Shown: piece after piece, positions 37,649 through 63,367 of the stretch | How positions within the stretch are numbered: the first letter of the stretch is position 1 | Layout of the letters: every line of letters starts with the position of its first letter | Source: Auanema rhodensis | Lineage: Eukaryota > Animalia > Nematoda | Direction: 5' to 3' | NCBI GenBank assembly: GCA_964057225.1 | Contig: OZ059895.1 | Span: 15,996,001 to 16,060,000, forward strand | DNA length: 64,000 nucleotides | Program-made: the position numbers and the translations under genes | Notes under the pieces: model-generated | The model's database searches: none | Seen by the model: only the letters and a program-made list of their open reading frames with translations | What the model was told of the DNA's origin: nothing

Positions 37649-37650
37649 TG

Positions 37651-37659
37651 CCCTTTTTC
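37651..37659 (-). promoter_or_regulatory. Polypurine tract
   Basis: GAAAAAGGG on the element sense strand, 2 nt (CA) before the 3' LTR. Confidence 0.75.
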
Positions 37660-38347
37660 AAAGATTGTCGCGACCTCGCGATATTTTAAACAAAAATTTG
37701 GGCTTATATGTAACTGAGTTTTAGAGTTCAATTGTTTTAGCTTCACAATAACTATAGTATGATAGAGTTTTAGTTAGTATACAAACAAAATTACAATAAT
37801 TTATAAGAAGGGTTCAATATAATATGAAGTGACGATGAATTAGAATATTATTAATTTCATAAATTAATTATCTTAATATTCAAGCATTTCCTAATAGAGA
37901 TTGTAGAATAAGGGGCTAGTAATGAATGGGAATATGTTATTATTTTGACTAATGGTCTCAAGAAGTACTCATTTCTAAATTGAACCGAGATTATGATTTA
38001 ATAATGTGTCTCCATATGTCTCCCAGAGTGAATCCTTGATTACTAATGGAGACTACCACTTAAGATGAAATTGTGGTTGATACGCCTACCAGTGTTTATC
38101 TCATCTTATTTGGAGAGGCACATGGAGCTCGGATGGTTGTCAAAATGTCCTCTAGTCCGCATAGGATTACGGTAACTTGGAACCATTAGTCATAACATCT
38201 CCTCGTTTAGAATTTGCCTTATTTTTCCTTTCTCAATCTCTATTAAATGCTATTTTTATTTTGAATGTTATTTAGCATTAATTTTTTTTTTTCTAATTCA
38301 TCGTTATTTTGTTACAATAATTTAAATAACGTAGCATTATCTTGTTG

Positions 38348-41300
38348 TTATTCTTCTTCATTCCTCGGAAGCCATATTTCGTCTTCATTTTCATCTTCTG
38401 GCTCTGTATCTATGCTATCCTTGTTGTTCCTGTTGATCACTTCTATTATTTCGATGTCGCTATCTTCTTCTGCTTGACTTTCTCGAAACCTTGCGCGAGT
38501 GTTGTAAGAGATGTTTTGTGAAGCAGGAGAGAAGATTTTCAAGTTATCTTTGTGGATATCTTGTAGTTTTCCTGATGAATTTCTGATTTGAACTTTTGAT
38601 CCTTCTACGTTGATGACTTCGTATGGTCCATCATAGCTTTTCCGAAGCTTTTGGCCGATTTGGTGTGATTTTATAGTCGTCATCACCATGTCGCCCGGTT
38701 GAATGTCTCTATGGTGTGCTCTTTGCGTTCTATCTTTCTTCTTTTTCGCATTTTCTTGATTTTTAGCTATGCGGTTCTTTATTATTTCGTCTCTCTTGTC
38801 CATATCTGGTCTTCTTTGGAGTAATTCTTCAGAAATTTCTTGAATTTTGGTGATCGTTTCTGGTAATTCAGCGTCCATTGACATTCTGCATTCTTTACCG
38901 AATAATGCAATGTATGGCGCAATCCCTGTAGTCGCGTGCTGAATATTGTTAATAGCAAAAGTGATTTTTGGTAATACAGTATCCCAGTCACTAAGGTCCT
39001 CTTTTAAGTAGTGGGTTAATCCTTCTTCGAGGGTTCTATGAAGTCTTTCCACTTGTCCATTTGAGTTCTTTTGGTGTGGTAGTGTTGGTTCATGTTTGAT
39101 TCCAAGTTTAGTACACATTTCTTCGAACTTTTTGGATACAAAGTTCGAACCTCTATCGGTGATCAAGCGATGTGGTGGTCCAAAAATGTAAACGAAATGT
39201 CTTAGAAATCGGTCAATTGTGATTTCCGTTGTTATTTGTGGTACAGCAATTGTTGTTGACCATTTTGTAAATGCGTCTTGCATGGTAATGACGTAGGTAC
39301 AGTTTCTTTTTGAAGGGGGAAATGGTCCCATTACGTCCATGTGGACTCGTTCAAATGGCTTGCTTGGTATCTCAAAATGACCTATTGGTTGTACCGTCAT
39401 GGAATGTGGATCTTTTTTTCTTTGAGCACATTTAATGCAGTTCTTGATGAATATAGTAATGTCGTTCTGCATATTTGTCCAATAGAATCTTCTTAGAATT
39501 GCTTCTTTTGTTTTAATAATTCCTTGATGTGCTGCAATTGTAGGATCCTCATGAAAAACTTTGATTATTTCCTCAATTATGGGGTGTTCTTGTGGTATTA
39601 CGATAGCGGGTTGTGGCTTTTTGTCTGTTGGTTTTGTATAGAGCAAGTCATTTATGACACAATATCTGTCATTAGCTGTCATGTTCTTTTGTGCTCTATA
39701 TTCAATCTCCGCTATCGTCCGTTTAATCCAAGGGGTGTTTAGTTGAATTTCCTTTATTGTTGGTGTATTTATGGCGTTAATGTGAATTTCTTCCATTTTC
39801 GTCTTCTTTGTTTCCGGCTTAGCATCGTTAGCTTCTTCACCTATATATCGAGATAGAGCATCGCATACTTTATTTAATTGGCCTGCGCGATATTTTATTT
39901 CAATATCATATTCTTGGATGACCAGCTGGAACTTCGCAAGACGACCAAATAAGTCTCTGCGTGTCATTAAGCTGGTAAGGGGTCGATGGTCCGTAATACA
40001 TATAGTATGAGTTCCAAGAATGTATGTACGGAATTGATTTAATGCATATACAAGGCCTAATGCTTCTATCTCGATTGGTGCGTAGTTACGTTCGGCTTTA
40101 ACTAGTTTTCTGCTTGCAAATGCGATAGGGTGTAGATTTTTCAGAGGTTGTTTTGGATCTTCCGGTTGTAATAATACAGCACCTATGGCGATGTTACTAC
40201 CGTCGCTTTCAACTATAAACAAGCGGTCCGATTTAGGTGGGCTTAAAACGGGTGCCTGTATTAAACTTCTTTTAAGGAGGTCTAAAGCTTCTTTATGTTT
40301 GTTTTCCCATTTGAATTCAGTATCTGCCTTTGTCAGATCGTATAAAGGGCTTGCGATACGTGCAAAATCTTTCATGAATTTGCGAAAGAATCCAACCATT
40401 CCCAAGAATGCTCGTACACCTGTTGCATTCTTTGGTGCCGGATAATCTTGTATGGCGGCGACTTTTTGAGGGTCAGGTTTTATACCTTGACATCCTACAA
40501 TAAGTCCTAGAAATTTCACTTCTGGTTGAGCAAAAGCGCATTTCTTAAGCTTTATCTTCATTCCCAATTCTTCTACTGCTTGCAGTAAATCATCGATATC
40601 TTTGAGATGTTGTTCTCTTGTATCAGATATAACTAATAGATCGTCCAAATAAACAAATAGTTTACAAGAACATTTACTTTGCAAATACCTTACTGCTGTT
40701 TGAAAGGTATGAGGGGCTCCACAAAGGCCCATCGGCATCCGTTTGTACTGGTATGTGCCGGATGTGGTCGTAAATGCTGTTAGTGGTCGATCTGATTTTC
40801 TCAAGGATATTTGAAAAAATCCTGACACTAAATCGAAGTTTGAGAAAAATTGGGCGCCTGCTGCCAAATCAACTATGTCAGAAATGCTTGGAATGACATA
40901 AGTTTGCTTGCGTGTGACATTATTTAAAGCTCGAAAATCTGTCACAAACCTATACGTGTCATCTTTCTTCTTAACTAGTACTACAGGGCTATTAAATAGA
41001 GATGTAGAAGGCTCTATTATGCCTTGCTCAAGCATTTCTTTGACTTGTTTTTCAATTTCTTCCTGTTTTCCTAAGGGAATACGTGTTATTCTCGGCTTTG
41101 GCATATCCATATCTGTTCTCAATGGTATGGTATGCTCTATAGGACCTTTAAATAAGCCTATTTTCCTGTCCTCGTTAAGAAATGCCTCACGATGGCTTTC
41201 AATTATTTTTGTAAGCTCATGTTTTTCTTCTTTCGTGAGATCAGCATTCTCTAGATCAAGATCTTTTATGAAGTCTCTTGGAAAATATGGTAGTTTACTC

Positions 41301-44300
41301 TCCCAATCGGCTTCTGGCGGAACATATGGTAGAATTGGCTTATGCTTAAAGGGTTCACAAGCCGGAATTTTTCCAATTATTGCCTGTCCGATGACTGAAT
41401 TAGCTTCCATAGCTATTGTTTCATCGGTATCGTTACGGAACATAACATATACTCCACTGGTATCACGAAACGCAGTTGGATATAATGATTTTAATGCGCT
41501 TCCACTATCCCCTAAGACAACCACTTCGTTAGATTCTAGTGGTTTATCTGTCTTTATTGGGATAGGTGCCTCTTCATCAGGCTTTAATGTTTTTGTTCTT
41601 AAATTAATGATATTCACAGTTATCTCCGTATGCTTAATAGATTCGTTTCCTATTAATGGGATGGCATTGTTTCCAATCTCCAACCTCTTCTTGGATGGTT
41701 TAAGGCTGACGTCGATGTTTTCGCTGTCAAGCGCTTTCATGAAATCTAGTCCAATTAAAGCGGGAGCAGGACAGTCATGATCGTTTGAGACCAAAAAGGT
41801 GTGTTCGATCTCGTAACCGGCAATTTCAATTACAAGATTTATCTTTCCATAAAATGTGAAAGTGGACTTGTTGGCTGCCATCGCTACTAAATGTCTCTTC
41901 TTGACATTTTCGGCCATGTTCAGATATTTGAGGGTGGAGAGCCTAACATATGACACTGATGAGCCTGAATCCCATAAAGCTAAAATCAGTTTATCTTCAA
42001 CTGATATATATACTAATGGTAACTTTGTTTCCGCTGATACAATAGAAGCAACAAATGGTATTGCGATTGGAATAAATGTTACTAAAGCAGGATAGTATTG
42101 CTTCATGATGTTATCTGGCATCTGTTGGTCTGGGCGGCTTACAAGTTCCAATGTTTCTTCATAGCTTGGGGGCTCATTATCTATTTCGTGGACATGCATT
42201 ACGGTTAGTGGAGTGGCTCTGAAGAACCAAAATTTAGCAACAACGAAAAGAATTATTAATACTGCGGCAATCGTAACCATTGATCCTATGAAGATGAGTG
42301 TTCTCTCAATTGATCCTATTAGAAATTGCTTTACGCTAGTCCAGGCGGAAGTTGTGAACTCAGCTGCTTTAGAGATATAGTCACTGCCCTTTTTCAAAAG
42401 ATTAAAGGCGGACGTAATTTTTGGATCGTTGTGAATAGTATGTAAAACATGGTTCTGTCGTATGGATGCTAAACTTGCTCCATATGCAATAGCTGTTGAC
42501 ATTGAGTAAACTCTCAATGATAAATTGGTGTATAAGTTAGCGCCTGTGAACTTTAAAGGTGTTAATTGGTGGTATTGCGCTTTATCAAAGAGTGATATTG
42601 GTTTTACTTCAACCGATCCATTTATATTTATCCATTCTCCATTTTGATAGTATACATCTGTGGGTACATGTTCGCAATCTATCTCTTTTCCATGTGTTAA
42701 TAAGTCTCTTGATCCTGGAGCAGCAAAATATAATCTCTCATCTTCTGTTATTACTGGTGTTTCCAAATAGCATGTATCATTGATCTTATGATTATGATAA
42801 ACAGCTTTAGGTTGAAGAGGTAGGCATATACGAACATGAACTATATCGCTGCCTACGAAACGGGCTGCAATATCCTCTCTTCCTAAAATAGTCCTCATTG
42901 CTATTGTAGGTTCTATGTGTAAAATAGAACGCCATAGCTCGAGGTATCTATTTTGAATCTCACATATGGATTCATAAGATTCCATGAAATGTTTCTGTAG
43001 CTCTTCTTGTATGAGTGTTGTTGTATATTGTAGATGATCTTGAGCTATTCTGCGAGATACGTTGAGGTTGAATTGTATTTCGTTGTTCACTTTTGACGCT
43101 GTATACGTTGCCTGAGCCTGAATTTCTCTGGTTTCTACGGGTGGAGATGATGTTCTTTGTTTCCTTAAGATTCGTGACGCCGTGTCAGTGACTGTTGCTA
43201 ATGTTGTTGGCGAGAGAGTCGTAGTTATCGCGGCTGTTGTCGTCTCAACTGTGGTTGTCGTCGGAATCCGAGTCGTATGGCTTTTAGTTGTCTCCTGAAC
43301 TAGTGAAGCGGGTTTGTCCGTTGTTGTCGTTAATGACAGTCTTCTAGTCAGATAAGGCGGTGTTTCAATATCCTCTAACAGTGGTAAAAATGTTTTTATA
43401 AGTAGCTGGCGTGTATCTGCGCTTGGGTTTTGAATGCGAGGGTGGGGCCCTATCGATATACCGTAGTTAGAATCTTTATCTCGATATAATTTGTTGGTAT
43501 CTGGCACATTGATTGTTAATTGTCGGAACTTTTCATCATCTACGGCTGCTGCTGTTTTATTTGGCCTTATTACTCGCAATGTCATCAAGTTATGGTATAA
43601 GTAAAGAGTGTTTCTAAGTACTATACGCTCATCAGCATTGTCAGTTGTTAGAGTTGGTCGGATCGGCGGCATGTTCACAAAGGATTTTAAAACCTCTTGC
43701 CTTGATGGTACCGACAGATTGTTTTCAAATATTACCGGTGTATAAGCTAACTCCATCGCTATGCTTTCGGCTCTTTCACGGTAGGATCCGTCTTTTTCTA
43801 GCAGTTTTTCGTCAAATTCGTGTGCTGTTAATCTGTCACCTATCTGTTCTAATAATTGTTGTGAGGTTAAATACCGTATAGCGCCGCGAGTGGTTGCTGC
43901 CAGTTCCTTTTGCGCAAGAAAATAAAGTATTGCTTCCTCAGGGTCGTGTATTTCGTATGTTTGAAGGAAACGTTGTATGGATTTATCAGATACGGGACTT
44001 CTTAAGAAGAAATAAAACTTCTCGGGATGTGCTGAAACCCAATCAATAATTGAATATGAAGGGTTGACAGCTCGTCTGGCCTTTATAAGCGGTATTATCT
44101 GATAAATACCAGGATTACTCATCACCGGTCGTAAGAAAGGATAAGGACAAATATTTAATATTAAAGTTTCAAAATCTTCCTGTTTTTGTATCCACTCCTT
44201 GTTTAATTCAACCGTGCATTCCGCAATTGCTCTTTTATCTCTTTTCGCCGGAAGTTTCTTATATTCTCTCTCTATTAAAACATGGATATTGGTGTCATTT

Positions 44301-46054
44301 GGGTACTGTGGTAAGAGAATGTAATTGCCAGTTGTGGTGTGGAAGATTGGCTGTTTAAAACAAGAAGATATTTGCTTCGGTATCTCTTTTTGATCGATTA
44401 CAAGGGCTGATTGAGTGGTTGGTAACAGAATAATGCCGTCTCCAATTATCACATCATATTCACTCATGTCGATATAGTTGCATCGATATTCATAAGGCTG
44501 TTTCTCCCATATGATGATTGAGGTATCTGATGCACATTCTCCATGATGCGCTAAGCATCCTTCAGTATTTAGTATTAAATTGGAGATTATAGTTTCATCT
44601 GGCATCCGTGTCATAACCCCTCTTTCGATAACCAATCTGGCTTTCTCTTCACATAGTTCATTATTAAAAGATCGGCCTGGCGAGAAGGAAGGCTCGTCAG
44701 TTGCATATGTTATGCTGTCGATCTTCTTTAATTCACTCCAATTCCATCTTCTATCTCTCACTGCCAGTCTGCATTCTGCAGCTGGTATCTTTTCAATTCT
44801 CGCTATCGTTGTATTGGTATCTCTAAGGAACAAAAGGTCTCTGATACACATTTTATGAATTTCTTTGGAGCATCTCCATGCATCCCATTCATGTGCCGTT
44901 TGATTCCTTGTATAAAGATGAACTTTTGTTCGTAAGATATGCTTTATTGGTGGTAATAAGCATTTTCGGAGAGATGGGGGACGGAGAAGGGCTCCTCCAG
45001 TAGCTTTAGTACATAGCTGGTATGCTTCAGCTGTTGTAACCAGTGATAAGATTACTGATAAAGCTACGGCTAAAGTCAAAGGAGATATCAGAGTCAAATT
45101 ATTGACTCTTGAGCCTCTACCTCTGCCTCTATTGTTGTTATTTCCCCTAAAGGTACTGTTATTTCTCTGTCTATTATTGCTCATTTCTTGATTTTGTGAT
45201 GCATTATGGCTTCTTTGATACCCATTTTGATTTTGATTCTGATAATTTCGACCGCGGTCACCAAAATTGCGGTTCCTAGCAAATGGGTTTTGGAAATTCC
45301 AGCCTTTTTGATTTTTTGAAAATTTATGATAATTTTGATTGTTTTGAAAGTTTGGATGATAATTGTTATAATTATTATAATTTTGATAATTTTTATTATT
45401 AAAAGATTGATAACCTCTTGCCATACCTCTCCCACCATTGTTTCTGCGCGGGGGGAAAGTTCTTTCAATTGCGTTAACCAATAGCGCCTGAGGGTCTGCT
45501 ACTTGGTTTGCAATTGATTCCTCCCAGCGAGCACTATCAACAGCCTCAGCAAAAGTTTTGGGTTTTGCTCGAATTACCCCTGGGCGTATCGTATTTTTCA
45601 AGCCTCTCAAAAATGTGGACCTCAGAATGTGATCTTTATGAGTATCACTATTAGAGAAAGCATTTAAGCTGAGGTTTCTTAACGTTTGTGCAAAACCATC
45701 AATTGATAAATCGCCTTGAGTGCTGTTTTGAAGTGTGATAAGGGCAGGGTCTTGATTGTATTCGGGACACAGCTTGGATGTTAACTCTTCTATTAGGGTA
45801 ACCCAAGGTCCAGCTGTTCTGACCTTGTCAGGTAGCTCTAAATAAGCTTCCTCTGCTCTGTCATTTTTCAATAGTAATGGTAAAATAGTTAGTCTTTCGG
45901 GCATCACTAAGCCTAAGGCGTTAGAAAAGGTATTAAACTTTGCCACGAAATCTCTAAAGTTACGACTTCCGTCGTATATGGGGCAATAAGGTGAGCTTAA
46001 TGCGTGCGCAATGGTAGATTTACCAGCTCCCGGAAGACGTGGTGTCTCCGTCAT
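38348..46054 (-). CDS. Gag-Env-Pol polyprotein (2568 aa): capsid-like Gag, internal signal peptide, gB-like class III fusogen with TM, aspartic protease, RT, RNase H, integrase
   Basis: Gag YDGS...FLRGL; signal LTLAVALSVILSLVTTAEA; TM at about 42221-42300; LWDSGSS; RMPMGL and YLDD; ESDGS/EIEA/TDH; integrase H-x-H...CIKC, MDVMGP, ITDRGSNF, NGQVER, YDGPY. Confidence 0.95.
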   Translation of the reverse strand: MTETPRLPGAGKSTIAHALSSPYCPIYDGSRNFRDFVAKFNTFSNALGLVMPERLTILPLLLKNDRAEEAYLELPDKVRTAGPWVTLIEELTSKLCPEYNQDPALITLQNSTQGDLSIDGFAQTLRNLSLNAFSNSDTHKDHILRSTFLRGLKNTIRPGVIRAKPKTFAEAVDSARWEESIANQVADPQALLVNAIERTFPPRRNNGGRGMARGYQSFNNKNYQNYNNYNNYHPNFQNNQNYHKFSKNQKGWNFQNPFARNRNFGDRGRNYQNQNQNGYQRSHNASQNQEMSNNRQRNNSTFRGNNNNRGRGRGSRVNNLTLISPLTLAVALSVILSLVTTAEAYQLCTKATGGALLRPPSLRKCLLPPIKHILRTKVHLYTRNQTAHEWDAWRCSKEIHKMCIRDLLFLRDTNTTIARIEKIPAAECRLAVRDRRWNWSELKKIDSITYATDEPSFSPGRSFNNELCEEKARLVIERGVMTRMPDETIISNLILNTEGCLAHHGECASDTSIIIWEKQPYEYRCNYIDMSEYDVIIGDGIILLPTTQSALVIDQKEIPKQISSCFKQPIFHTTTGNYILLPQYPNDTNIHVLIEREYKKLPAKRDKRAIAECTVELNKEWIQKQEDFETLILNICPYPFLRPVMSNPGIYQIIPLIKARRAVNPSYSIIDWVSAHPEKFYFFLRSPVSDKSIQRFLQTYEIHDPEEAILYFLAQKELAATTRGAIRYLTSQQLLEQIGDRLTAHEFDEKLLEKDGSYRERAESIAMELAYTPVIFENNLSVPSRQEVLKSFVNMPPIRPTLTTDNADERIVLRNTLYLYHNLMTLRVIRPNKTAAAVDDEKFRQLTINVPDTNKLYRDKDSNYGISIGPHPRIQNPSADTRQLLIKTFLPLLEDIETPPYLTRRLSLTTTTDKPASLVQETTKSHTTRIPTTTTVETTTAAITTTLSPTTLATVTDTASRILRKQRTSSPPVETREIQAQATYTASKVNNEIQFNLNVSRRIAQDHLQYTTTLIQEELQKHFMESYESICEIQNRYLELWRSILHIEPTIAMRTILGREDIAARFVGSDIVHVRICLPLQPKAVYHNHKINDTCYLETPVITEDERLYFAAPGSRDLLTHGKEIDCEHVPTDVYYQNGEWININGSVEVKPISLFDKAQYHQLTPLKFTGANLYTNLSLRVYSMSTAIAYGASLASIRQNHVLHTIHNDPKITSAFNLLKKGSDYISKAAEFTTSAWTSVKQFLIGSIERTLIFIGSMVTIAAVLIILFVVAKFWFFRATPLTVMHVHEIDNEPPSYEETLELVSRPDQQMPDNIMKQYYPALVTFIPIAIPFVASIVSAETKLPLVYISVEDKLILALWDSGSSVSYVRLSTLKYLNMAENVKKRHLVAMAANKSTFTFYGKINLVIEIAGYEIEHTFLVSNDHDCPAPALIGLDFMKALDSENIDVSLKPSKKRLEIGNNAIPLIGNESIKHTEITVNIINLRTKTLKPDEEAPIPIKTDKPLESNEVVVLGDSGSALKSLYPTAFRDTSGVYVMFRNDTDETIAMEANSVIGQAIIGKIPACEPFKHKPILPYVPPEADWESKLPYFPRDFIKDLDLENADLTKEEKHELTKIIESHREAFLNEDRKIGLFKGPIEHTIPLRTDMDMPKPRITRIPLGKQEEIEKQVKEMLEQGIIEPSTSLFNSPVVLVKKKDDTYRFVTDFRALNNVTRKQTYVIPSISDIVDLAAGAQFFSNFDLVSGFFQISLRKSDRPLTAFTTTSGTYQYKRMPMGLCGAPHTFQTAVRYLQSKCSCKLFVYLDDLLVISDTREQHLKDIDDLLQAVEELGMKIKLKKCAFAQPEVKFLGLIVGCQGIKPDPQKVAAIQDYPAPKNATGVRAFLGMVGFFRKFMKDFARIASPLYDLTKADTEFKWENKHKEALDLLKRSLIQAPVLSPPKSDRLFIVESDGSNIAIGAVLLQPEDPKQPLKNLHPIAFASRKLVKAERNYAPIEIEALGLVYALNQFRTYILGTHTICITDHRPLTSLMTRRDLFGRLAKFQLVIQEYDIEIKYRAGQLNKVCDALSRYIGEEANDAKPETKKTKMEEIHINAINTPTIKEIQLNTPWIKRTIAEIEYRAQKNMTANDRYCVINDLLYTKPTDKKPQPAIVIPQEHPIIEEIIKVFHEDPTIAAHQGIIKTKEAILRRFYWTNMQNDITIFIKNCIKCAQRKKDPHSMTVQPIGHFEIPSKPFERVHMDVMGPFPPSKRNCTYVITMQDAFTKWSTTIAVPQITTEITIDRFLRHFVYIFGPPHRLITDRGSNFVSKKFEEMCTKLGIKHEPTLPHQKNSNGQVERLHRTLEEGLTHYLKEDLSDWDTVLPKITFAINNIQHATTGIAPYIALFGKECRMSMDAELPETITKIQEISEELLQRRPDMDKRDEIIKNRIAKNQENAKKKKDRTQRAHHRDIQPGDMVMTTIKSHQIGQKLRKSYDGPYEVINVEGSKVQIRNSSGKLQDIHKDNLKIFSPASQNISYNTRARFRESQAEEDSDIEIIEVINRNNKDSIDTEPEDENEDEIWLPRNEEE

Positions 46055-46119
46055 GGTTGGTATATCCTCAGGGTATGTGCGAGATGACGTAATCCCTTTA
46101 CTGCCTGAGCTTCTCGCCG

Positions 46120-47052
46120 TTAAATTCTTACCTCCCTTTTTCGAGTTACCAGATGTTGGATAACTAATGGTAGGGGCGGCTGAGGAGAACCGCTTCCCTG
46201 GGAGTTTGATAATTCGACTCGTTGCCTGAGGCGTCGAATGTATTGATACGCTTGAGCTGGGTATAGCGCTATCTGACTTATTAAGGGTTGGGTTGGAGGA
46301 TACGTGAAGAGAGTTATCACTTGTTCTGTTGTTACCTCCCCTGGAGACAAATTCAAAACTTTTATTAAGCGAGCTGTTAAAGATTTCTTACTTTTGAACT
46401 TATCAGTAGTTAGTGATAAGGGCAAAACTTCGGTAATTTCCTGATTTGGTTCTACAGGATTATTAGAGGTTGAGCGCCTACGCGGTGTATTAGTTTTTCT
46501 TTTATTAATTTTTTTAGAATCAAGCTTTTTCGAATCAAGCTTATCAGTGATAACTGATAAGGGTGATTTGCGAATAGTGAGAGATGAGGTTTTATTAAGT
46601 TGTGAGTTTTCTATCGGAGTGGAAAATGCCTGCGGTGTTAGAGTTAGTTCAAAAGAAGATGCAAGATCGTTATCAGTATTAACTGATAAAGTTGATAAGT
46701 TTAGGTGGGGAGTGGCTGGTGAAGTATTAGAGGTTATTTGTTTTGGTTTTTGAATTTTTTGAATCTTTTTATTACTTTTAAAAGAGTGTACCTTTGGAGT
46801 TGAAGCTGAAGTTTGAATATTGTAGTCCTGAATATAGAAATCAGGGTCCTCCTCGGTGTTGTCCGGAGGTGAATACGTGCCTTCTCGAGGAATGAAGGTT
46901 TTCTCGACTTTGGGTTTTACCTCTTGTTCAGGCTCTTCAATCTGAACACTGAGGAGTCGAGTGCGGCTTCTGGTTCGACTGGCGACTGCGATGTCGTCAC
47001 TGGACTCAGAAGGGTATAGAGCAGGGACGGCCGAAGAGTATCTTCGTGCCAC
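46120..47052 (-). CDS. Upstream S/T/K-rich ORF0, probably an N-terminal extension of Gag in the adjacent frame
   Basis: 310 stop-free codons with no ATG (GTG start in the track); overlaps the open upstream extension of the polyprotein frame. Confidence 0.55.
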   Translation of the reverse strand: MARRYSSAVPALYPSESSDDIAVASRTRSRTRLLSVQIEEPEQEVKPKVEKTFIPREGTYSPPDNTEEDPDFYIQDYNIQTSASTPKVHSFKSNKKIQKIQKPKQITSNTSPATPHLNLSTLSVNTDNDLASSFELTLTPQAFSTPIENSQLNKTSSLTIRKSPLSVITDKLDSKKLDSKKINKRKTNTPRRRSTSNNPVEPNQEITEVLPLSLTTDKFKSKKSLTARLIKVLNLSPGEVTTEQVITLFTYPPTQPLISQIALYPAQAYQYIRRLRQRVELSNSQGSGSPQPPLPLVIQHLVTRKREVRI

Positions 47053-47472
47053 TTTGGAATCACTCTTGGTTTGGAAAAACCGCGAGTGTTTCGTTATATG
47101 GGGGATGTTGACGTTGAATGAGTGACAAGAAATTCAGGTCGGTTATAGGGAAAAGTAAGAAAAGTTTGAAGATTGAGACGTGGCGTCTTTCGCCGAGAAT
47201 CGTTATTAGATGAGAAAGAGTTTTAAAATCTTGGCCTGAGATCTGGCTCCGCCTATCTACCGTATTCTCTTTTCTTTATTCTTTTTCACAGATGTTCATC
47301 AATTATAAATTTTGTTGGTCTTCGCTCTTTCCAGCCTCAATCTTAATACTTTACTCTAATTGAATTCTTGAAAATATGAGAGAGATTTTCAGTCGTTTTA
47401 TGTCCCCTTTTTATGCATAAGATTCTTTATATTTGTAGAGCTGAAGAAGAAAGAAAAAAAAATAATCAAAGA

Positions 47473-48451
47473 ATGGCTTATGAAGGTCTATCGGGAATGA
47501 CTTTTGTCTTGAGAAAGCTGTACGCTGACCTCGTCTTGTATGATCAAGACGAAGTGTTAGCTTATAGGCCTCACCCAGACATGATTAAGATGGTTGGTTA
47601 AAGCAAAGAAACATGTTATATTAATAATAAAAAAAAAATTTTAGTTTATCGAGGATTTAAAAATGCATTATCTGGGGAGGGGATTAGTGAATTTCTCCCT
47701 AATGCAAGAAATAGCGGATGAGGTTGCAGCTATTGGGCGATGGTGCCTCACCGATTTGTGCGCGCATTGGTATGAAAACCCCAATTTAATCGCATCCCCT
47801 TGGAATTGGTATGAGCATAAGCCTCATGATTTTTATGATTATATGTCTAAAATTTTGTTTAAAATTTATTTGTTTTATGAACAGTCTCCTATGGGCTTAT
47901 TGCTAAGGACCTCTGCGGATTCAGAGTATTCGCAGTATTTAGAGCCTAGCAATGAGCCCATCTCACAGCCTATAGAATTTGTGAGACAGTTGCATTTTAA
48001 ATGGGGCTTTTAACAATTGTTTTATATATAATAAATACTTAATTTCACTCATTTGTTCTCTCTCTCTCTTTTTTTTTTCATAACACAAACTTTGGTCGAG
48101 CTTATTAATAAAGAAGGAGTGCGTGCGCCTTGGGAAAATGGCTCATGTGCACGTTGATTATTAAAAGCCGTGGGCGATTCTTTTCCGGAATGATTTTGGC
48201 ATGCTAATGAGATTCCGAGAATATTTAAAAAGATTGCTCATTTTACTAATGGACTGAGACCAAAGCTCGTTTATAAAACGCAATTTTTTTCTTTAAACCA
48301 TTTTACTAATTTATAGAATATTACAATATGAAGACTACGGTAGGTGTGTGGGAATATCTTATGATGTTAGCAACAAAAATGAGCTGAGGAAGGTGACACA
48401 TTCTACGGAGAAGAAAACATCCGTAGCCCATGTGCTTTCGCCAAAATGACC
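47473..48451 (+). pseudogene. Antisense intron-containing accessory gene or remnant inside the element 5' region
   Basis: MAYEGLSG...DMIKM exon joins in frame across a 52-nt GT-AG intron (47593-47644) to FIEDLKMHYLGRG...; later exon-like blocks carry in-frame TGA stops; AATAAA near 48521. Confidence 0.5.
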
Positions 48452-48982
48452 TGACAGGCAACAAAATTTGTGCCAGGATTTTTCGTACTAGTGTGGTCTA
48501 TTCTCACAATCAAAAAAAAAAATAAAAACCGAATAACGGCTCCCGCAAAAATATTTAGTTAGCATGCTCTTTTACGCCTGAATTTAACTTTCAAATCTCT
48601 AGTCCTGACCACAATAAAATATTAAACTTTGTGCGCTTTCAAAATTTCATTCTAACTCCTCGTTGCCAAATAATAATGTAATCAAAATTTCGTTTGGTGA
48701 AATTGTCCCCTATTTCGATCCAAACGTCCTCAAAAAAAAATGCAAGAGAAGCGGTGCAGGATACGGTATTATAAGGGTGGACACTCAGACGGTTTTATGA
48801 GTGGGGACAGCGGGTGAAATTTCAAAATTATATAGTCCTAGCTCTCTAAAAGAGAGATCCCTTGTACCTGCACCTTATACAAGTTGGCGCCCTCATTATG
48901 TTGCTAACCGTGGAGGAAGTTTTAATTTAGATATCAAAATATGGACTTTTTATGCGAGTTTTTGCGACAAAAATGAGTTCGA

Positions 48983-48995
48983 GGTGGAACCTCCA
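48983..48995 (-). promoter_or_regulatory. Primer-binding site complementary to the tRNA-Gln 3' end
   Basis: TGGAGGTTCCACC directly after the 5' LTR; metazoan tRNA-Gln ends ...GGTGGAACCT-CCA. Confidence 0.85.
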
Positions 48996-49361
48996 CGTTC
49001 CATTATGCTCCTACGTATATTGAACAGACCATTGTAGTCTGCTCAACTACGCGTATAGTATTCCATAAGTGTAGCGGTATGGAAACAGAGCATAAGGATT
49101 ACATAAGATAAGGAAATATATAGGTTTATTATACACAATACAATATCATTACAATACAATAACACAAGGATAAAGTAAACTACATTTACAAGACAAAGAC
49201 TAATATATAAGATTAACTAAGTTAGATGCAAACCGTCCATGGGCTTGCAAAGGGGCGAACTCCCGAATAGGGGCATGAGGGAAGGCGGTGCCATTCCTCA
49301 TTCCTCTAGTCGGTCTGGCTCTAACCCTGCAGTTACATATATAGAGTCTCCGAATGGAACG
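48996..49361 (-). repeat. 5' LTR of the Gypsy element
   Basis: 366-bp direct repeat of 37283-37648. Confidence 0.95.
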
Positions 49362-56101: not shown

Positions 56102-56340
56102 AATCTCGAATATTAATTTCATGCTTGGTAATCAGAATATCGTGAGAGTTTCACGTGAAATCCACGTACATCCACACGCTCACTTCATTTTTGAATTATA
56201 ATAGCACTTGACCGGTTGTTCTTCATGTTATAAAATTACTTCTATACTACAATTTTTCTTTTCAGGAAATTGTGATCATTGAAGCCAAGGGAGAGACTTA
56301 GAATCGTAACGTTGGTATTCTGATAACGTGTAGTCTCATA

Positions 56341-56412
56341 TCCTCGGTAGTATAGTGGTGAGTATCCGCGTCTGTCACATGCGAGACCCGGGTTCAATTC
56401 CCGGCCGGGGAG
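56341..56412 (+). tRNA. trnD-GTC: tRNA-Asp(GTC)
   Basis: Copy of 31172. Confidence 0.97.
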
Positions 56413-56664
56413 AATGTTTTACACCTGTTCAGTATGTTTTCTTCCAGGTAATGCCCTGAGGGTTAAATTATCCGTAAATGTATTGTTTCATTGGCTAAAT
56501 AGTTGTGAACGGGATGGTCGCCAATACTTTCGGGTTCTTCCCGCTTGAGTTGCAATTAAAACCTGATCGAATGTTTTTCCTCAAGATTCAGAAATTGAAT
56601 AAAGTGAAACCCATATGAGATACCAAACAAGGTATGGCCTGTTAGACTCATTGAGTTGAAAAAT

Positions 56665-56828
56665 AAACTTACCTGGCTGGGAGCTGCCCGCGATCATCAA
56701 GGCGGGCTCTCTACGAAGAGGCCTGATCATTGCACTTTTCGATTGGGCTGACCTGTATGGCAATCTCGAGTTGAGATTCGCCAACAGCTAAATTTTTGCG
56801 TTTGGGGATGCGTTCGCGCGTCCCTTAC
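56665..56828 (+). ncRNA. U1: U1 snRNA
   Basis: Copy of 30769 unit; unique upstream GACCAATA>GAAAAATA change. Confidence 0.95.
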
Positions 56829-57075
56829 AATCTCGAATATTAATTTCATGCTTGGTAATCAGAATATCGTGAGAGTTTCACGTGAAATCCACGTACATCC
56901 ACACGCTCACTTCATTTTTGAATTATAATAGCACTTGACCGGTTGTTCTTCATGTTATAAAATTACTTCTATACTACAATTTTTCTTTTCAGGAAATTGT
57001 GATCAGTCACGTCCTACTCCAATTGGCACCAACGTTGAACCTAATACTGAAAAGGTGAATCTGACGACTCAAGAT

Positions 57076-60000
57076 ATGGAGAACAACGTGAATATGATGC
57101 AACAACCGTGTCTGGATGAAAACTCCGCGTGCGGTGCAAATTCATCTTTTCATACATTGTCCATGGCAGTCACCGTTAAGGGCGTTGGCTGTGATTCAAG
57201 CTTGGACGTCGAAGTATCACCAAGCAGCAATGTAAGTCTTGATGAACTGAGGCTCTGGTCAGCTTCGTCTAAGATGAGCTCACGCGTATCGGGATCACTT
57301 GAATTAGAAGTACCTGTAGTTTCGCAGATGTCAACGATACGCGCACTACCAGGGTATAGCAAGCAATACCCAATGCTGGATATAATGAATTATTATTCAA
57401 TATTGCACTGCGGGCATGACGGTTCGGTGCTTGCCAGATCGGACGGAGAGAACTTCCAGATGTCTACTCGGCCTGATCAAGAGATATCTGCAGGGGATAA
57501 ATTTGCTCGATTTGAGCCAATAATCTCGGCCCTTAGTGCGGCCTTTATAATAATATCACCGAAATTGAGTGAGCCACGGGTCATGTATGAGGATGACCAC
57601 AAACGCATCTCTAGGGCTATGGATGAACTCCTTGAAAAGATGATGCGCGAAAATCATTTGAATCGCGGTGGTGGTTCCTTCGTAATCCGGTTTCAGGACA
57701 CGCGAAATCACATCGTTGTTTTGACATCGCCATTTTCAGTATTGTATAAGGTATACAAGCACTGCATTGGCATAACGCAGTCTTACGTGCGCACTGACTC
57801 GCTCACTAAGCCACACATAAGCATGATACCTTCCTATCGAATTACGGTACAGGAAGCTCATGTATCCCCACGGTTTGACGTCACTGTAAAACCAATTTTC
57901 AGTGAGTTGAGCTGCTTACTAGACGCAATGCGATATAGCAGCTATTTTAGGCATTTGACCGTCGTTCGCGATGTAAGTAATATGCATAGGGAGGGTACGG
58001 GAATTGCTCATGTAGCGCAGAAATTTGAAGCGCTTGAAAGCTCATTGCAACTACTCACCCATGATGTACGTAAACTGCAAGAGGGGGCTTTGATCTATAG
58101 GACTCTGAAGATTGACTTGCGTAAGTACGACGTATCAGTCATACGATGCGTTAACGTTAATAAGATCTTAATGAATCCGGAGCCTATTCCTTTGATAACC
58201 TATTCTTCTCACTTAGCCGTTAATATCGCTAACGAAGAGAGATTATATCGGTGCCCAGGTTTGCCCCTCATTTTAGGGTGCTCCGTTGCTCGTACTGGTG
58301 AGCCCGATTATGGTTCACATTATGGAGATCAGTTCGGCTCAATAACCCCCCAGGTTATTACACCCCTCAGCATAGGAAATGAACTACGTGGAGCGACTAT
58401 GTTTTCTCAACCATCTGTTAAAAGTGCACACTTTCATTACAGATTAACTTTACGCGACAATGTTGCTGATGACGAATACCCGCACGATCTTGAGTACATC
58501 ATCGTAGTTGATTTTGCAGATGATAATCTTGTGCCCCACGATTACATGGTGTCATCGTATGGCAGGCTTGAAGTCAAGAACGAGGGAGAAACAATAGTGC
58601 CTTTCCAAGACGAGACTTGCGATATGGGGGCACGCGGCACGGATTTCGCGATTGCCTACATGACAAAGACAATACCAGTGACTGGACTTTATAGTGCGCA
58701 TTACGCGCGGCATTACCTTCTGTTTCCGCACGCAGCCGACGCTGTGCAGAGTGTCGATGCCATTGAACTACACACTGGGGTGGGAAAGATTATGAATTCC
58801 ATATCCCTAAATCAAACCGTCGACTTTACAGCTCTTGACGGCACGCGCACGCACGCGTTGACTACCAGCTCCAACGGCAGTCATAGGGGAGTTTCGACGT
58901 TCTTCCCACGCTTCATTGAGTATGTGCCATTTGAAGATATATGCACACCAGATGAGGGTAAATCACGTACGACTGGCTTATCCTTTCGTTTCCTCGAAAG
59001 CGTTGTACCTGCGTATTTGGATCTCCATTGTCGCGACAGACGTGACGTCGGCCTTGCATGTAGCGTGTTCGGAGCCTTCTGTGAGGGTACCGAAGCATTC
59101 ACCTGTAAGAGGATACTAGTGCGTACCGATCGTGGTTACGCCATTAATAGAGAGGGAGTCTTTTACAGGCCCAAGGATAAACGAAGTCTTGATATCGATT
59201 CTTCGATTAACGCCATTGACATTAACTCACTGGCATGCGGGCCATCTGGTATCGTTAATAATAGGTCAAAGTTCATGACTTCGTCTGGAGGCATAATGGA
59301 TATTGTCTTTTCGGAGACTATGGCCATGTGTGATGCTACGGGCTTATCTAGCCGTTCATCAATGCTTAGCTTTGGCTATTTAGCTGGAGGCGGAAGTGTC
59401 AATCTTGCGTTACGGCCAAACGGGCTCGGCGATATCAAGACGTATAGTATGCTTACTGCATACTACAACGATAAAATTTACGACATGGAGCGTAACATGC
59501 TCGCAATTGTGCGCACCACCAACGAGCTATCCCTTAAGTTGGATTCATCCATTATACATGTAGGAAATGACATGGTGTACAGATTTGTTGACCATAAACA
59601 AGGGTTCGGCAAGTCAGTCGACCACCTGCTGTCAGTTATTAACAGCGGGGCATCTGCTGCTTCCCTTATTTTCCCACAAATTGGAGTAATTGCCTTTTAT
59701 GGCACCGCTCTACGCACGTTCCTTTCAGCCGTATCGAGCATCATCGACGGTAAAAATGCCACGCTGACCATTGCGTCTTCGTATGCGATGTCAAACTATG
59801 CTCTATCTCTAACCAACATGCATGGCTTAGTATCGCACATGTACTCCACGGTGCCAGACGAAGCTAAAGGGTGTGGTTTAGGTCGACTATCTAACCATTG
59901 GATTGATATTGCCCCAATCGCGAACATTGATGTAATATCAGATGCGTACACGAAGTATTCTGTCAATTTTGTTGAAATGCCAAAATTCGGGCGAGTAAGC

Positions 60001-60231
60001 GTTCGTACTTCAAGTCTAGGTAACAGCGCCTTGTCGAAGATGCTCCCTATTCATACTATCAGCCCTCACGATACCTCAGTCCAGGGGATGTTAACTAACA
60101 CGCTTAGAAGAATGAACCTTGGAATTGAGCACCAATATGTATCATTATGCTCTATATTACATGGAGGTTCCACCTTAGAATCTTTTTACGATTTTCGAAC
60201 TCGATTAAATTATGAATTATCATTCAGTTAA
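57076..60231 (+). CDS. Intronless ~1051-aa endogenous viral element-like protein resembling a dsRNA-virus outer-capsid/spike protein (Phytoreovirus P2-like)
   Basis: Uninterrupted ORF, visibly less AT-rich than the host; two coiled coils, a beta-rich middle, a hydrophobic hairpin VINSGASAASLIFPQIGVIA and an LPIH motif; first true ATG at 57076; family call from memory only. Confidence 0.65.
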   Translation: MENNVNMMQQPCLDENSACGANSSFHTLSMAVTVKGVGCDSSLDVEVSPSSNVSLDELRLWSASSKMSSRVSGSLELEVPVVSQMSTIRALPGYSKQYPMLDIMNYYSILHCGHDGSVLARSDGENFQMSTRPDQEISAGDKFARFEPIISALSAAFIIISPKLSEPRVMYEDDHKRISRAMDELLEKMMRENHLNRGGGSFVIRFQDTRNHIVVLTSPFSVLYKVYKHCIGITQSYVRTDSLTKPHISMIPSYRITVQEAHVSPRFDVTVKPIFSELSCLLDAMRYSSYFRHLTVVRDVSNMHREGTGIAHVAQKFEALESSLQLLTHDVRKLQEGALIYRTLKIDLRKYDVSVIRCVNVNKILMNPEPIPLITYSSHLAVNIANEERLYRCPGLPLILGCSVARTGEPDYGSHYGDQFGSITPQVITPLSIGNELRGATMFSQPSVKSAHFHYRLTLRDNVADDEYPHDLEYIIVVDFADDNLVPHDYMVSSYGRLEVKNEGETIVPFQDETCDMGARGTDFAIAYMTKTIPVTGLYSAHYARHYLLFPHAADAVQSVDAIELHTGVGKIMNSISLNQTVDFTALDGTRTHALTTSSNGSHRGVSTFFPRFIEYVPFEDICTPDEGKSRTTGLSFRFLESVVPAYLDLHCRDRRDVGLACSVFGAFCEGTEAFTCKRILVRTDRGYAINREGVFYRPKDKRSLDIDSSINAIDINSLACGPSGIVNNRSKFMTSSGGIMDIVFSETMAMCDATGLSSRSSMLSFGYLAGGGSVNLALRPNGLGDIKTYSMLTAYYNDKIYDMERNMLAIVRTTNELSLKLDSSIIHVGNDMVYRFVDHKQGFGKSVDHLLSVINSGASAASLIFPQIGVIAFYGTALRTFLSAVSSIIDGKNATLTIASSYAMSNYALSLTNMHGLVSHMYSTVPDEAKGCGLGRLSNHWIDIAPIANIDVISDAYTKYSVNFVEMPKFGRVSVRTSSLGNSALSKMLPIHTISPHDTSVQGMLTNTLRRMNLGIEHQYVSLCSILHGGSTLESFYDFRTRLNYELSFS

Positions 60232-61284
60232 AGAGAATTTATTTTTTTTTTGAGCTATTTCCCTGGGCTACCACCTCTCTTTCCAATTCAGTACGAAGGG
60301 TCTCACTCTTTTTTTTTAATAAACAGGGTTGATATTTTGCGCAGGGTGAGATACTGAATTGGCCAACTTTTCGATATTTTTGTTTCTGCGCAGTTGTATT
60401 TTTGATTTTTCATTGTGGCGAAAAATATATATTTTTTGGAAATGGAAAAGCTGTTTGATATAAGCAAAATTGGACCTTAATAAAGTCAATTTGCGATATT
60501 TTTGATAAAGATTACAAGTTTGTACTAACAGAATGGCCACTGTAAGAAAATAACATCCGCTGTATCATTTGTCATATTTGAATTTAAACCTTCCTCTCAT
60601 AATTTTTTGATTGTTGATTCAAGTTGAAACAAAGACTTTGGAATTTGAAAGATGCCTTGTTTGGTAATTCATTGTTATTCAGTAACAATTGAGATTTTGA
60701 TTTGTCCGCCATACTCACTTCTCTAATTTATGAATCACATTGTCACATAATCATATCCTATCATCATCTTAACAATTAATTATATTCACATCTTTTTTTT
60801 CCTCTCTATAGTTTGTTTTTGTATGAGTTCATTAATTAATTAATCTTCAACCCATATTATTATATATCTTTTTTTTCTTCGATTTTTTTTTCATGTTATT
60901 CACTAATTTATTCACTATCAACTATTCATATTCTTATCTTGTTTACTAACTTATTCCACTATTTTACATTGTAGATTGTTCTGACTTTCCTCCTTTTCCA
61001 AAACGGCAACCTCCAAGAATAATTATACGGATACGCCTTTCCGTACCTCTCAAAGATTAAGAGACAAGAGAAATCGTATTTCTCGATTTCCTTTTCCCGA
61101 TAGTGACGACTCGTTTGACAACGATTTAAGTCCATCGGACGACGAAAAAACGCCAACACACTTGGCTGTAACACCGAAAAAAGAAAAAACTCCCCAGCGC
61201 GAAAAACTACCTCTGAAGCTCCTACTCAACATGAGACCACATGAGCAATCAAACAGAGATTCAACTCTGTAAACGCCTAATTTA

Positions 61285-62266
61285 ATGGCATCTCCAGAGT
61301 TGACCAAAAACTTAACAAAAGTTCTAGGCAGTCCACACTGCCCTAAATACGATGGTAGCCGAAGCTTTCGATCGTACATCGATATATTTAACCGATTCGC
61401 GAATGCTGCGGGACTTTCGGTAATTGAAAGAATTTTTCTTTTTCCTCTGCTGCTTCAGCAGAATGATTCTGCGATCTCTGCATATAACTCGATTTCTTCC
61501 GAAATTCGTGAACGAGGGCCTTGGAAAGACCTTGTTTCACAATTGGCAGAGTTACTTTGCCCTGCCACGGAAAGGAATTTCACGATCGCGAAGTTGCTAC
61601 GCTCGACGCAAGGAGAGAAAACTGTTACTCAGTTGCCTCATACTTGGAAGAAATGGCTTCCAGTATTATGAGCCCAACTGATCGAGAAAGAGAGCTCATA
61701 TTAAGATCAGCTTTCTTAAATGGATTGAACGCTGATTTAGGCATAATTGTTCAAGGAAAAGATCCGAAGACTTATGAGGAAGCAAAAAGGACAGCACGTT
61801 TTGAAGAAGCAATTCGTGCTAACTATAAGAAACAGCATGAAGAAAACTCAACTATGCAAGAGTTGATTTCTGCAGTTCAGAAGATCACCATGAAGGAAAA
61901 TAGGAACTAAAGGAACCATCAGCAGCCACGAGATTTCGAACGGAATAATGGCAACAATCCAAGAAACCCTTGGAGGAATTTCAAAAATAAATTCAGCAGG
62001 AACTCTGGCCCTCGACAAAATTATGGAAACAACTACTCAATGGAGAGTCATCATCATACGAGAGAACCTCGCAACAATTATCCAAGAGGAAATCGAGACA
62101 ACCTATTCTAAATTCTCCAGAAAATGACGAATTATTGGAAAGAAATGAAAATCGGAAAAATACCTGGAATTCTATTCAAGAGAAAATTAAACAAAAATCA
62201 ATTGAACAACAACATCGACTGAATAATAGTAACCGAATAGCATCACGTACATTTGAAATAGGTTAA
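61285..62266 (+). pseudogene. Frameshifted gag homologous to the first element, fused to an integrase C-terminal remnant
   Basis: LGSPHCPKYDGSRSFR vs LSSPYCPIYDGSRNFR; ILRSAFLNGL vs ILRSTFLRGL; frameshift near 61630; ELLERN...RIASRTFEIG aligns ungapped with ELLQRR...RAHHRDIQPG. Confidence 0.85.
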
Positions 62267-62339
62267 ATGGCGTTAAAGGGGATGAAAAATTTTACAAACC
62301 TTATACCTGTGAGGACACAGGACTTCAAGAGCGGTATCA

Positions 62340-62734
62340 TGTAATACTTTATAATTCTGTACTTTATTCTTTCTATAATTTTTATGTATTTCTTTATTCT
62401 TTATTCTGTATTTCATATTTCTTAATTCTAATTTCTTGTCTTAGTGTATTATGTTATCAGTTATATTTTACAACCTCAGCATTTTCCAGGATAATTACAA
62501 TTGTCATTGACAACTTAAAACCTTGCGTGGAAAATGCTGATAACATTCGCTATATAAGCTTGCCATTCAACTGAATCTTCAGTTGGCGGACTTATCTTTA
62601 TTTGTTTATTGTTTAAATGTTTTTTATTTATAATAAATCTTTCTCTCTTCCTCAAATCTTATTGTTTCTTTTACAACACATCAATCTAAGGGTCAATAAC
62701 ATGGAACATTAATATCCAAATCAAGGATATTACA
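62340..62734 (+). repeat. Putative 395-bp 3' LTR of the second element
   Basis: TGTAATA...TATTACA terminal inverted repeats, TATATAA at 62551, AATAAA at 62633; ends exactly where the array resumes; only one copy in the window. Confidence 0.7.
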
Positions 62735-62964
62735 TGTTTTCTTCCAGGTAATGCCCTGAGGGTTAAATTATCCGTAAATGTATTGTTTCATTGGCTAAAT
62801 AGTTGTGAACGGGATGGTCGCCAATACTTTCGGGTTCTTCCCGCTTGAGTTGCAATTAAAACCTGATCGAATGTTTTTCCTCAAGATTCAGAAATTGAAT
62901 AAAGTGAAACCCATATGAGATACCAAACAAGGTATGGCCTGTTAGACTCATTGAGTTGACCAAT

Positions 62965-63128
62965 AAACTTACCTGGCTGGGAGCTGCCCGCGATCATCAA
63001 GGCGGGCTCTCTACGAAGAGGCCTGATCATTGCACTTTTCGATTGGGCTGACCTGTATGGCAATCTCGAGTTGAGATTCGCCAACAGCTAAATTTTTGCG
63101 TTTGGGGATGCGTTCGCGCGTCCCTTAC
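62965..63128 (+). ncRNA. U1: U1 snRNA
   Basis: Copy of 30769 unit. Confidence 0.95.
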
Positions 63129-63367
63129 AATCTCGAATATTAATTTCATGCTTGGTAATCAGAATATCGTGAGAGTTTCACGTGAAATCCACGTACATCC
63201 ACACGCTCACTTCATTTTTGAATTATAATAGCACTTGACCGGTTGTTCTTCATGTTATAAAATTACTTCTATACTACAATTTTTCTTTTCAGGAAATTGT
63301 GATCATTGAAGCCAAGGGAGAGACTTAGAATCGTAACGTTGGTATTCTGATAACGTGTAGTCTCATA

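Follow-up and report, generated by a model that had tools for sequence, protein, structure and literature searches.

In the 64,000-nucleotide stretch of DNA analysed here (the window), a tandem host array is interrupted at 57006–62734 by an insertion made up of a 3.1-kb ORF that is still intact, the broken gag of a Ty3/gypsy element and a single 395-bp LTR. The ORF meets the element at 60153/60154, where it abuts the last 8 nt of an LTR (ATATTACA), followed by a tRNA-Gln primer-binding site (PBS). The ORF therefore stands in for the 5′ LTR and is itself cut at its 3′ end. The explanation we favor, with somewhat better than even confidence, is that reverse transcriptase (RT) switched templates once during synthesis of the left LTR and that the product was then integrated by one end.

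Structure of the insertion and its junctions

The host array has a 727-bp unit in 22 copies, with tRNA-Asp genes (n = 20) and U1 snRNA. Comparison of the units returned the same insertion coordinates as the first-pass annotation, with 156 bp of host sequence lost, one tRNA included, and bore out both its placement of the right end 22 bp beyond the tRNA end and its report of no target-site duplication (TSD), which was absent when looked for at the insertion ends. In a tandem array, the 156-bp loss is indistinguishable from a 571-bp duplication or from the loss of extra whole units. The order at the locus is array, ORF, 8 nt of LTR end, PBS, leader, gag, full LTR and array:

56279–57005, + strand: array unit of 727 bp, the last complete one before the insertion (tRNA-Asp, 56341–56412; U1 snRNA, 56665–56826)
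57006–60153, + strand: foreign segment of 3148 bp with no detected relative; intronless; present in contigs of runs X1 and X5
60154–60161, + strand: 5′ LTR remnant ATATTACA, 8 nt, identical to 62727–62734
60162–60174, + strand: PBS TGGAGGTTCCACC, complement of the tRNA-Gln 3′ end; 13-mer shared with a neighboring element
60175–61284, + strand: AT-rich leader, 28.6% GC over 60232–60984; about three times the ORF depth
61285–62100, + strand: Ty3/gypsy-type gag, disrupted near 61635 by a frameshift and near 61910 by an in-frame stop
62101–62339, + strand: short 3′ region with a weakly purine-rich tract at its end; no detectable pol or integrase
62340–62734, + strand: full 395-bp 3′ LTR with TGTAATA/TATTACA as its 7-bp inverted ends; stops 22 bp past the end of the missing tRNA
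62735–63305, + strand: array resumed 156 bp further into the unit (U1 at 62965–63126)

The junction between the putative virus and the element had earlier been placed near 60200–60240, some distance from its actual position, and the left LTR had been described as absent; the full 5′ LTR is indeed gone, but its last 8 nt and the PBS are still there. The identical PBS 13-mer lies immediately 3′ of the 5′ LTR in the neighboring element at 48995, and the site agrees with a GlnCTG primer (PMC7744096). As written, the PBS 12-mer is absent from the seven supplementary files of PMC13524379, its reverse form occurring solely in checklist file 1.

The gag remnant aligns by tblastn with the gag of the neighboring Ty3/gypsy element (40% and 27% identity, E 1e-30), whose pol is in PR-RT-RH-IN order. 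This match upholds the gag block of the first-pass annotation, and the base composition does the same for its AT-rich leader. The Pfam Retrotrans_gag match to the remnant is weak (E 0.08 and 0.16), and no gag relatives were found among longer proteins. An integrase tail had also been proposed; the best of nine frame/target pairs was equalled by 13 of 300 shuffles, and we reject it. The element gave no match to pol (PR, RT, RH or IN) and is either non-autonomous or internally deleted. Its 3′ LTR holds TATA-like and AATAAA signals. Classified from its sequence, by the gag, the TG…CA LTR and the PBS beside an LTR end, the element half is of Ty3/gypsy type, falling short of two LTRs and a TSD in that the 5′ LTR amounts to 8 nt and the TSD is absent.

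In the single-switch model, a foreign RNA would have been co-packaged with the RNA of a gag-only Ty3/gypsy element, with RT and integrase presumably supplied by an autonomous relative. Minus-strand synthesis would have run through the 3′ LTR, gag and the PBS and 8 nt into the left LTR before RT jumped, at 60153, onto the foreign RNA, taking its sense strand as template for 3.15 kb or more. Integrase would have joined the good right end 22 bp beyond the tRNA gene, and host repair would have sealed the non-LTR left end. One switch gives exactly the observed order of parts, and repair of the left end by the host would account for both the lack of a TSD and the 156-bp loss (or 571-bp duplication). 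Because its 5′ LTR is missing, the copy should be incapable of moving.

The same order, absence of a TSD and host deletion would result if a two-LTR element had inserted first and a later break had taken 150-odd bp of array together with the greater part of its 5′ LTR, with free cDNA of a foreign RNA end-joined into the gap; ORF and element would then have arrived independently, at different times. With a damaged gag in the window and an intact, invariant ORF, the ORF could be the younger of the two. This damage does not date the join, however, since some of it may be specific to one copy or an assembly error; at several element-body positions the public sequencing runs read differently from the window. 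A random break would also need to lie no more than 8 nt from the PBS, as it would at 9 of 395 LTR positions (2%) or at 9 of the 2573 positions in the element (0.3%), and agreement of strand is worth another 1 in 2. We consider such a later repair unlikely and regard the position of the junction, at the LTR end and PBS, as favoring the single switch.

Copy number and contigs in public sequencing runs

Copies were checked in public sequencing runs, the kind of run being guessed as DNA. All or part of the ORF was present in 11 of the 14 runs among those listed, and no RNA run among them carried it. In two runs from two studies, X1 and X5, the ORF forms one unbranched contig (56976–60183) with 0 differences from the window. 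These contig ends are exactly as expected with both junctions in the reads; the contig reaches 30 letters over each junction and so misses a 31-letter bridging rule by one. To the left of the ORF, both runs pass directly into the array with no LTR in between. Neither run holds a second ORF-like contig, from which it follows that a parent gene of at least 85% identity is absent there.

The LTR is 4.9–5.9 times as deep as the ORF in all three deep runs and the element body 2.7–3.2 times as deep, both relative to the ORF only, corresponding to about three bodies and five to six LTRs per ORF. This excess depth indicates that the LTR family is present elsewhere, and the LTR also occurs with other 5′ flanks in the runs. 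The terminus of the 62340–62734 LTR is as the first-pass annotation had it. In place of the genome-wide search that it proposed, the public runs showed further copies of the LTR and gag; no LTR-ORF-gag-LTR copies were seen in them.

These observations bear on the second of its two proposals, a mobile non-autonomous family carrying a viral entry protein as a substitute for env, of which the present copy would have lost its 5′ LTR. The element family is multi-copy and apparently lacks pol, captured sequences may go on moving as non-autonomous elements according to the accessible text of PMC5131818, and in run X7, from a third study, the ORF has different surroundings. Against this, the ORF lies 5′ of the PBS rather than between the PBS and the polypurine tract and is therefore outside the packaged internal region; it has one-third of the body depth and, in X1 and X5, a single left flank without an LTR. 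Nor does it lie between gag and the 3′ LTR, the arrangement relevant to an env-bearing, errantivirus-like (gag-env-pol) element. Its product has 1.8% Cys, shows no glycoprotein features and bears no similarity to the gB-type env of the neighboring element (34 of 60 shuffles score equally high). We regard cargo of this kind as very improbable.

Run X7 differs from X1 and X5. Its ORF contig covers only 57067–60079, with 29 unlike letters after 60079 and four before 57067. A 7-nt match between the ORF and the LTR at the point of departure was considered as the cause and rejected, since the LTR contigs of X7 run on through that point and the number of unlike letters does not agree with it. Element contigs in X1 and X7 begin their match at 60154, and in X7 an element contig crosses 60154 unbroken. 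The X7 end points are left unexplained by a single fixed one-off event. Run X11 is too shallow to judge.

Repeats flank the ORF on both sides, and the right LTR/array junction is absent among the 32 records listed, with 256 more beyond that listing, so that the link from the ORF to the right end rests on the assembly of the window. These features would suit an assembly chimera in which a contaminant had been joined to repeats. Short-read contigs from two studies, one of which may be the window's own source, nevertheless carry the left and ORF/PBS junctions letter for letter, and we find such an artifact hardly credible.

The foreign reading frame and its origin

The frame is open over 1099 codons (56932–60231), a length with a chance probability of about 3e-27; the remaining five frames of the region contain 37–93 stops. 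Within the foreign segment it is open from the left junction, has its first ATG at 57076 and extends 1026 codons up to the right junction, then continues through the PBS to a stop at 60229–60231. GC3 (0.47), CpG (1.12) and TpA (0.93) are all above those of the five host-like ORFs compared (0.23–0.40, 0.52–1.01 and 0.50–0.88, respectively). The protein has a best 19-residue hydropathy of 1.57, with no clear transmembrane stretch, and visual inspection shows no signal peptide. The RdRp motifs SGxxxT and GDD are absent from it, and Pfam gave no RdRp match.

Searches for relatives gave zero matches in Pfam, NCBIfam and PHROGs, zero in a 5.8-billion protein set at near and shorter lengths, 0 at E 0.001 among 1.84 billion representatives, none among PDB sequences up to E 5 and none among viral and metagenome contigs. 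Single-sequence AlphaFold models have pLDDT values of 29.6 and 31.2, and their Foldseek matches (TM 0.25 or less) are meaningless. In the ESM Atlas, the whole protein reaches MACPF-like clusters weakly, at 0.75–0.78, and its C-terminal part reaches unnamed clusters at 0.80, a level that shuffled proteins attain one-third of the time. We did not adopt a MACPF identity, given Atlas scores below 0.8 and a single YGSHY (residue 412) without the downstream GG that we take to complete the MACPF motif. A presumed likeness to a reovirus outer-capsid protein found no support.

The earlier designation of the ORF as a viral entry protein is therefore not sustained by sequence, family or structure search, and because these gave no relative, the term viral applies only by exclusion. 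On that footing the ORF is probably of viral origin, and its product can, with fairly good confidence, be assigned to an unsampled virus, where it would serve as a non-enveloped structural protein or in the replication complex. As no protein of non-retroviral viruses emerged from these searches, the ORF is not classed as a non-retroviral endogenous viral element, though it behaves like one.

Alternatively, the ORF may not be RNA-viral at all, being instead a fast-evolving host orphan, a gene of a DNA virus or DNA element, or RNA from a symbiont or food, joined by the same capture or at the level of DNA. There are zero viral matches, the Atlas leads are weak, and the occurrence of the same DNA with other ends in X7 could point to a DNA donor. 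Yet no parent copy is found in X1 or X5, a 1000-aa cellular protein usually has a relative among 1.84 billion representatives, and the ORF is 3 kb, intronless and non-host in composition. A non-RNA-viral source thus appears quite unlikely to us. That no viral relative was found counts against the capture model, in which the RNA origin of the ORF is putative.

The single switch is further favored by the PBS identity, the multi-copy depths of body and LTR, the absence of a parent contig and the non-host composition. The ORF is also in the element sense and 3′-truncated, as in the LTR-mediated retrocopies described in the accessible text of PMC5131818. The other proposal of the first-pass annotation, a template-switch cDNA integrated by one end, accordingly gains support from the join 8 nt 5′ of the tRNA-Gln PBS and from the multi-copy LTR and gag; its viral label is unproven.

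Significance and comparison with known systems

Where LTR elements have captured foreign RNA in nature, the product is mostly too decayed to reveal the RT switch point. The present capture would be recent, with a switch point located to single-base precision 8 nt 5′ of the PBS, and one-ended integration is as expected after a single switch. Whether the donor was an unsampled virus or something else, the 1026-codon ORF, which has no relatives, offers a probe for it. A bolder reading, to which we give only a modest chance, is that a relative-less, non-enveloped nematode RNA-virus lineage with a gene or segment of at least 1000 aa has left its first trace in this ORF, preserved at the very step of LTR synthesis at which RT jumped, and that the identical sequence with different ends in another population reflects repeated capture or re-copying by the gag-only family. 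If so, (i) one-ended capture close to the PBS would be a recurring path to heritable viral sequence in nematodes and (ii) the site, in a highly transcribed U1/tRNA array, could supply small-RNA immunity, a role that presence or absence among strains would allow to be tested.

The comparisons that follow draw on the accessible parts of the sources cited. Aberrant integration of ASLV and HIV (PMC5041404) gives one normal LTR end and another repaired by the host with a deletion or large duplication and no TSD; those forms arose in cultured cells through mutated ends or drug treatment, whereas here the bad end is foreign sequence at a germ-line locus. Mosquito vDNA and NIRVS-LTR hybrids (PMC6797480) join virus to Ty3/gypsy DNA by reverse transcription, but involve known viruses, mainly as fragments, and no PBS-level junction was found in that text; the available portions of 10.1101/127498 and 10.64898/2026.03.30.715342 likewise hold no junction detail.

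In LCMV-IAP recombinants (Geuking et al. 2009, via PMC3205384), the RT of an LTR element recombines with non-retroviral RNA and the chimera integrates, although these are somatic and experimental. In LTR-mediated retrocopies of host mRNAs (PMC5131818), template switching has fused part of a foreign RNA, copied in the sense orientation, to an LTR element. They use two switches, replace the internal ORFs, keep both LTRs and can remobilise, in contrast to the one switch outside the internal region, the one LTR and the array as left flank proposed or observed here.

A close likeness is to eBxnv-1 of Bursaphelenchus xylophilus (PMC5177903), a nodavirus RdRp between the two LTRs of a Bel/Pao element. 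Like the putatively viral ORF described here, this virus-derived ORF is single-copy, tied to an LTR element in a nematode and explained by RT copy choice, and it is invariant in carrier strains and missing from others. The present insertion differs in its Ty3/gypsy element, in an ORF that lacks relatives and takes the place of the 5′ LTR, and in having one LTR end only.

Anatomy of the insertion and its element half

The insertion (window 57006–62734) is real and recent, and its anatomy is plain: an open frame, an AT-rich leader, a gag remnant and a 395-bp LTR (62340–62734) with 7-bp inverted ends, none of it matched at the DNA level elsewhere in the window. The junction between the foreign coding segment (the ORF) and the LTR element can be placed by comparison with a neighbouring element:

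37283–49361, minus strand: intact gag-env-pol Ty3/gypsy element with one 2679-aa ORF
37283–37648 and 48996–49361: its identical 366-bp LTRs, with unusual CG...CG ends

This neighbour encodes a gB/Monjiviricetes-type fusion protein, PR, RT, RH and IN, is flanked by a 4-bp TSD (GTAT) and is a very recent insertion 33 bp upstream of a U1 gene. It resembles elements with gag-env-pol order and gB-type env reported in Nematoda, Bryozoa and Platyhelminthes (PMC13524379, partial text). Its PBS corresponds to tRNA-Gln: the 13-mer TGGAGGTTCCACC, directly after the 5′ LTR, is complementary to the tRNA-Gln 3′ end, judged by its match to the mammalian GlnCTG primer (PMC7744096, partial text). Only one other copy occurs in the 64 kb, at 60162; the 8 nt before it, ATATTACA, are those with which the insertion's own LTR ends, and the foreign segment therefore ends at 60153. 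It is cut at its 3′ end and takes the place of the 5′ LTR except for 8 nt; the last 26 codons of the open frame come from element DNA. The first-pass annotation had correctly joined ORF and element, but near 60200–60240; its statement that the left end lacks an LTR holds save for these 8 nt.

The gag remnant, a relative of the gag of the neighbour (E 1e-30), carries a frameshift near 61635 and a stop codon near 61910. The insertion has no detectable remnant of pol or integrase, and the 'integrase tail' proposed earlier is not supported. In three sequencing runs (X1 and X5, from two studies, and X7, from a third) the leader and gag have 2.7–3.2× and the LTR 4.9–5.9× the ORF depth, ratios that are not calibrated on a single-copy gene and fit about two complete sister copies. 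The LTR start is joined to other flanks in X1 and X7; the LTR thus occurs elsewhere, as the first-pass annotation had asked. There is no break in depth between gag and the LTR, which suggests a gag-only family; the neighbour is a possible helper.

The LTR-end contig (62526–62735) runs one base, a T, past the LTR in all three runs, a hint that the family has a preferred target site. A further subtype of the 3′ region and LTR (62049–62218, 62470–62525), more diverged, is also present in all three; in X7, contigs turn at the end of gag (62101) into other sequence that may belong to a longer relative.

The ORF and its occurrence in sequencing runs

The frame is open over 1099 codons (P about 3e-27). 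No relatives were found in Pfam, NCBIfam or PHROGs, in a 5.8-billion set, among 1.84 billion representatives, or among PDB sequences, viral contigs and metagenome contigs; Atlas leads were at chance level, and fold searches were uninformative because the structure models failed. GC3, CpG and TpA exceed those of all five host-like ORFs, a mechanically chosen set in which some intron sequence may be included. The protein has 1.8% Cys, two Trp and no clear membrane anchor and is not an envelope glycoprotein; the 'viral entry protein' suggested earlier is not supported. These searches gave no homology to a virus; a virus is the likeliest donor, and probably the true one, by exclusion instead of homology. 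The earlier alternative of a non-autonomous element carrying the ORF as cargo does not stand up: position, depth and protein features are all against it.

All or part of the insertion is present in 11 of the 14 runs listed, from three studies; contigs from four of the 11 were compared with the window. In X1 and X5, one of which may be the source of the window, the ORF is a single contig (56976–60183) with no differences. Its ends fall where they should if the reads contain the left and ORF/PBS junctions, with an overlap of 30 letters, one under the bridging rule. Neither run has a branch to an LTR upstream of the ORF or a second ORF-like contig. None of the 32 records listed, beyond which there are 256 more, contains the right (LTR/array) junction. 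A one-off, immobile capture is most likely.

X7 differs. Its ORF contig is limited to 57067–60079, again with no differences, and carries 29 unlike letters after and four before; by depth arithmetic, 57052–57066 and 60080–60153 are without cover. Its element contig crosses 60154 with 21 more unlike letters, as many as an LTR end should contribute, and 57005 is crossed unbroken by an array contig. The holes in cover prove nothing, and graph cleaning may lose short links; the unlike letters, however, lie inside records. This pattern counts against a simple one-off picture and may reflect a second capture, a rearranged allele or an assembly effect.

The small-RNA array and the insertion site

The target is a 727-bp tandem array (30711–64000; 22 copies in the window), every unit of which carries tRNA-Asp(GTC) and a U1 snRNA with a nematode-like 5′ end; a Pol III and a Pol II gene are thus paired within one unit. 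This 5′ end and the gag-env-pol order of the neighbouring element, with its gB-type env, make a nematode the probable host. Array contigs reach 38–66× ORF depth in two runs. The two LTR-element insertions adjoin small-RNA genes of the array, a siting that may reflect targeting. The array spacer holds a TTTTCAG splice-acceptor consensus (56986–56992), 13 nt short of the left junction and 83 nt ahead of the first ATG of the ORF; it could permit trans-splicing of read-through RNA.

The array is interrupted after 57005 and picks up again at 62735. As first described, 156 bp including one tRNA are absent, the right end lies 22 bp beyond the tRNA end and no TSD surrounds the insertion. In a tandem repeat, a 156-bp deletion looks the same as a 571-bp duplication or the loss of extra units; the flanking units differ at two positions, and we therefore lean slightly toward deletion.

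Mechanism and comparison with known captures

Minus-strand synthesis in LTR elements runs back to the PBS and then continues through U5, R and U3, forming the left LTR (PMC5371799, partial text). A single switch by the minus strand, 8 nt into left-LTR building, onto a co-packaged sense RNA would yield ORF, 8 nt, PBS, gag and LTR, with one end integrase-ready. That end would integrate, and host enzymes would join the other with a deletion or large duplication. The first-pass annotation had proposed, as one option, a template-switch cDNA with one-ended integration: the anatomy, with the ORF 8 nt before the PBS and one full LTR, is shown, and we judge the switch and one-ended integration themselves to be moderately probable. 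The main rival, an existing insertion later patched with foreign sequence during repair, would give the same order of parts, but requires a chance break this close to the PBS (0.3–2%).

When one end of a retroviral DNA is bad, integration proceeds via the good end and the host joins the other, leaving deletions or large duplications (PMC5041404, partial text); the 156-bp loss or large duplication fits this behaviour. Within the literature searched, which took in few subscription papers and had Geuking 2009 outside its scope, there was no natural capture whose junction lies at the LTR end/PBS and whose integration was one-ended. LTR elements are described, in the available parts of the sources, as capturing RNA-virus sequence in a nematode (eBxnv-1, PMC5177903), mouse cells (LCMV-IAP, via PMC3205384) and mosquitoes (PMC6797480), and their capture of host mRNAs is a general phenomenon (PMC5131818). 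In eBxnv-1 and in fly and mouse retrocopies, as far as these texts extend, LTR-element sequence lies on both sides of the captured part, whereas here the array lies on the left. The insertion behaves as a non-retroviral endogenous viral element would, but is not classed as one because homology to a virus was sought and not found; it is a variant of a known capture process, its protein is an orphan, and one sample (X7) does not fit the simple picture.
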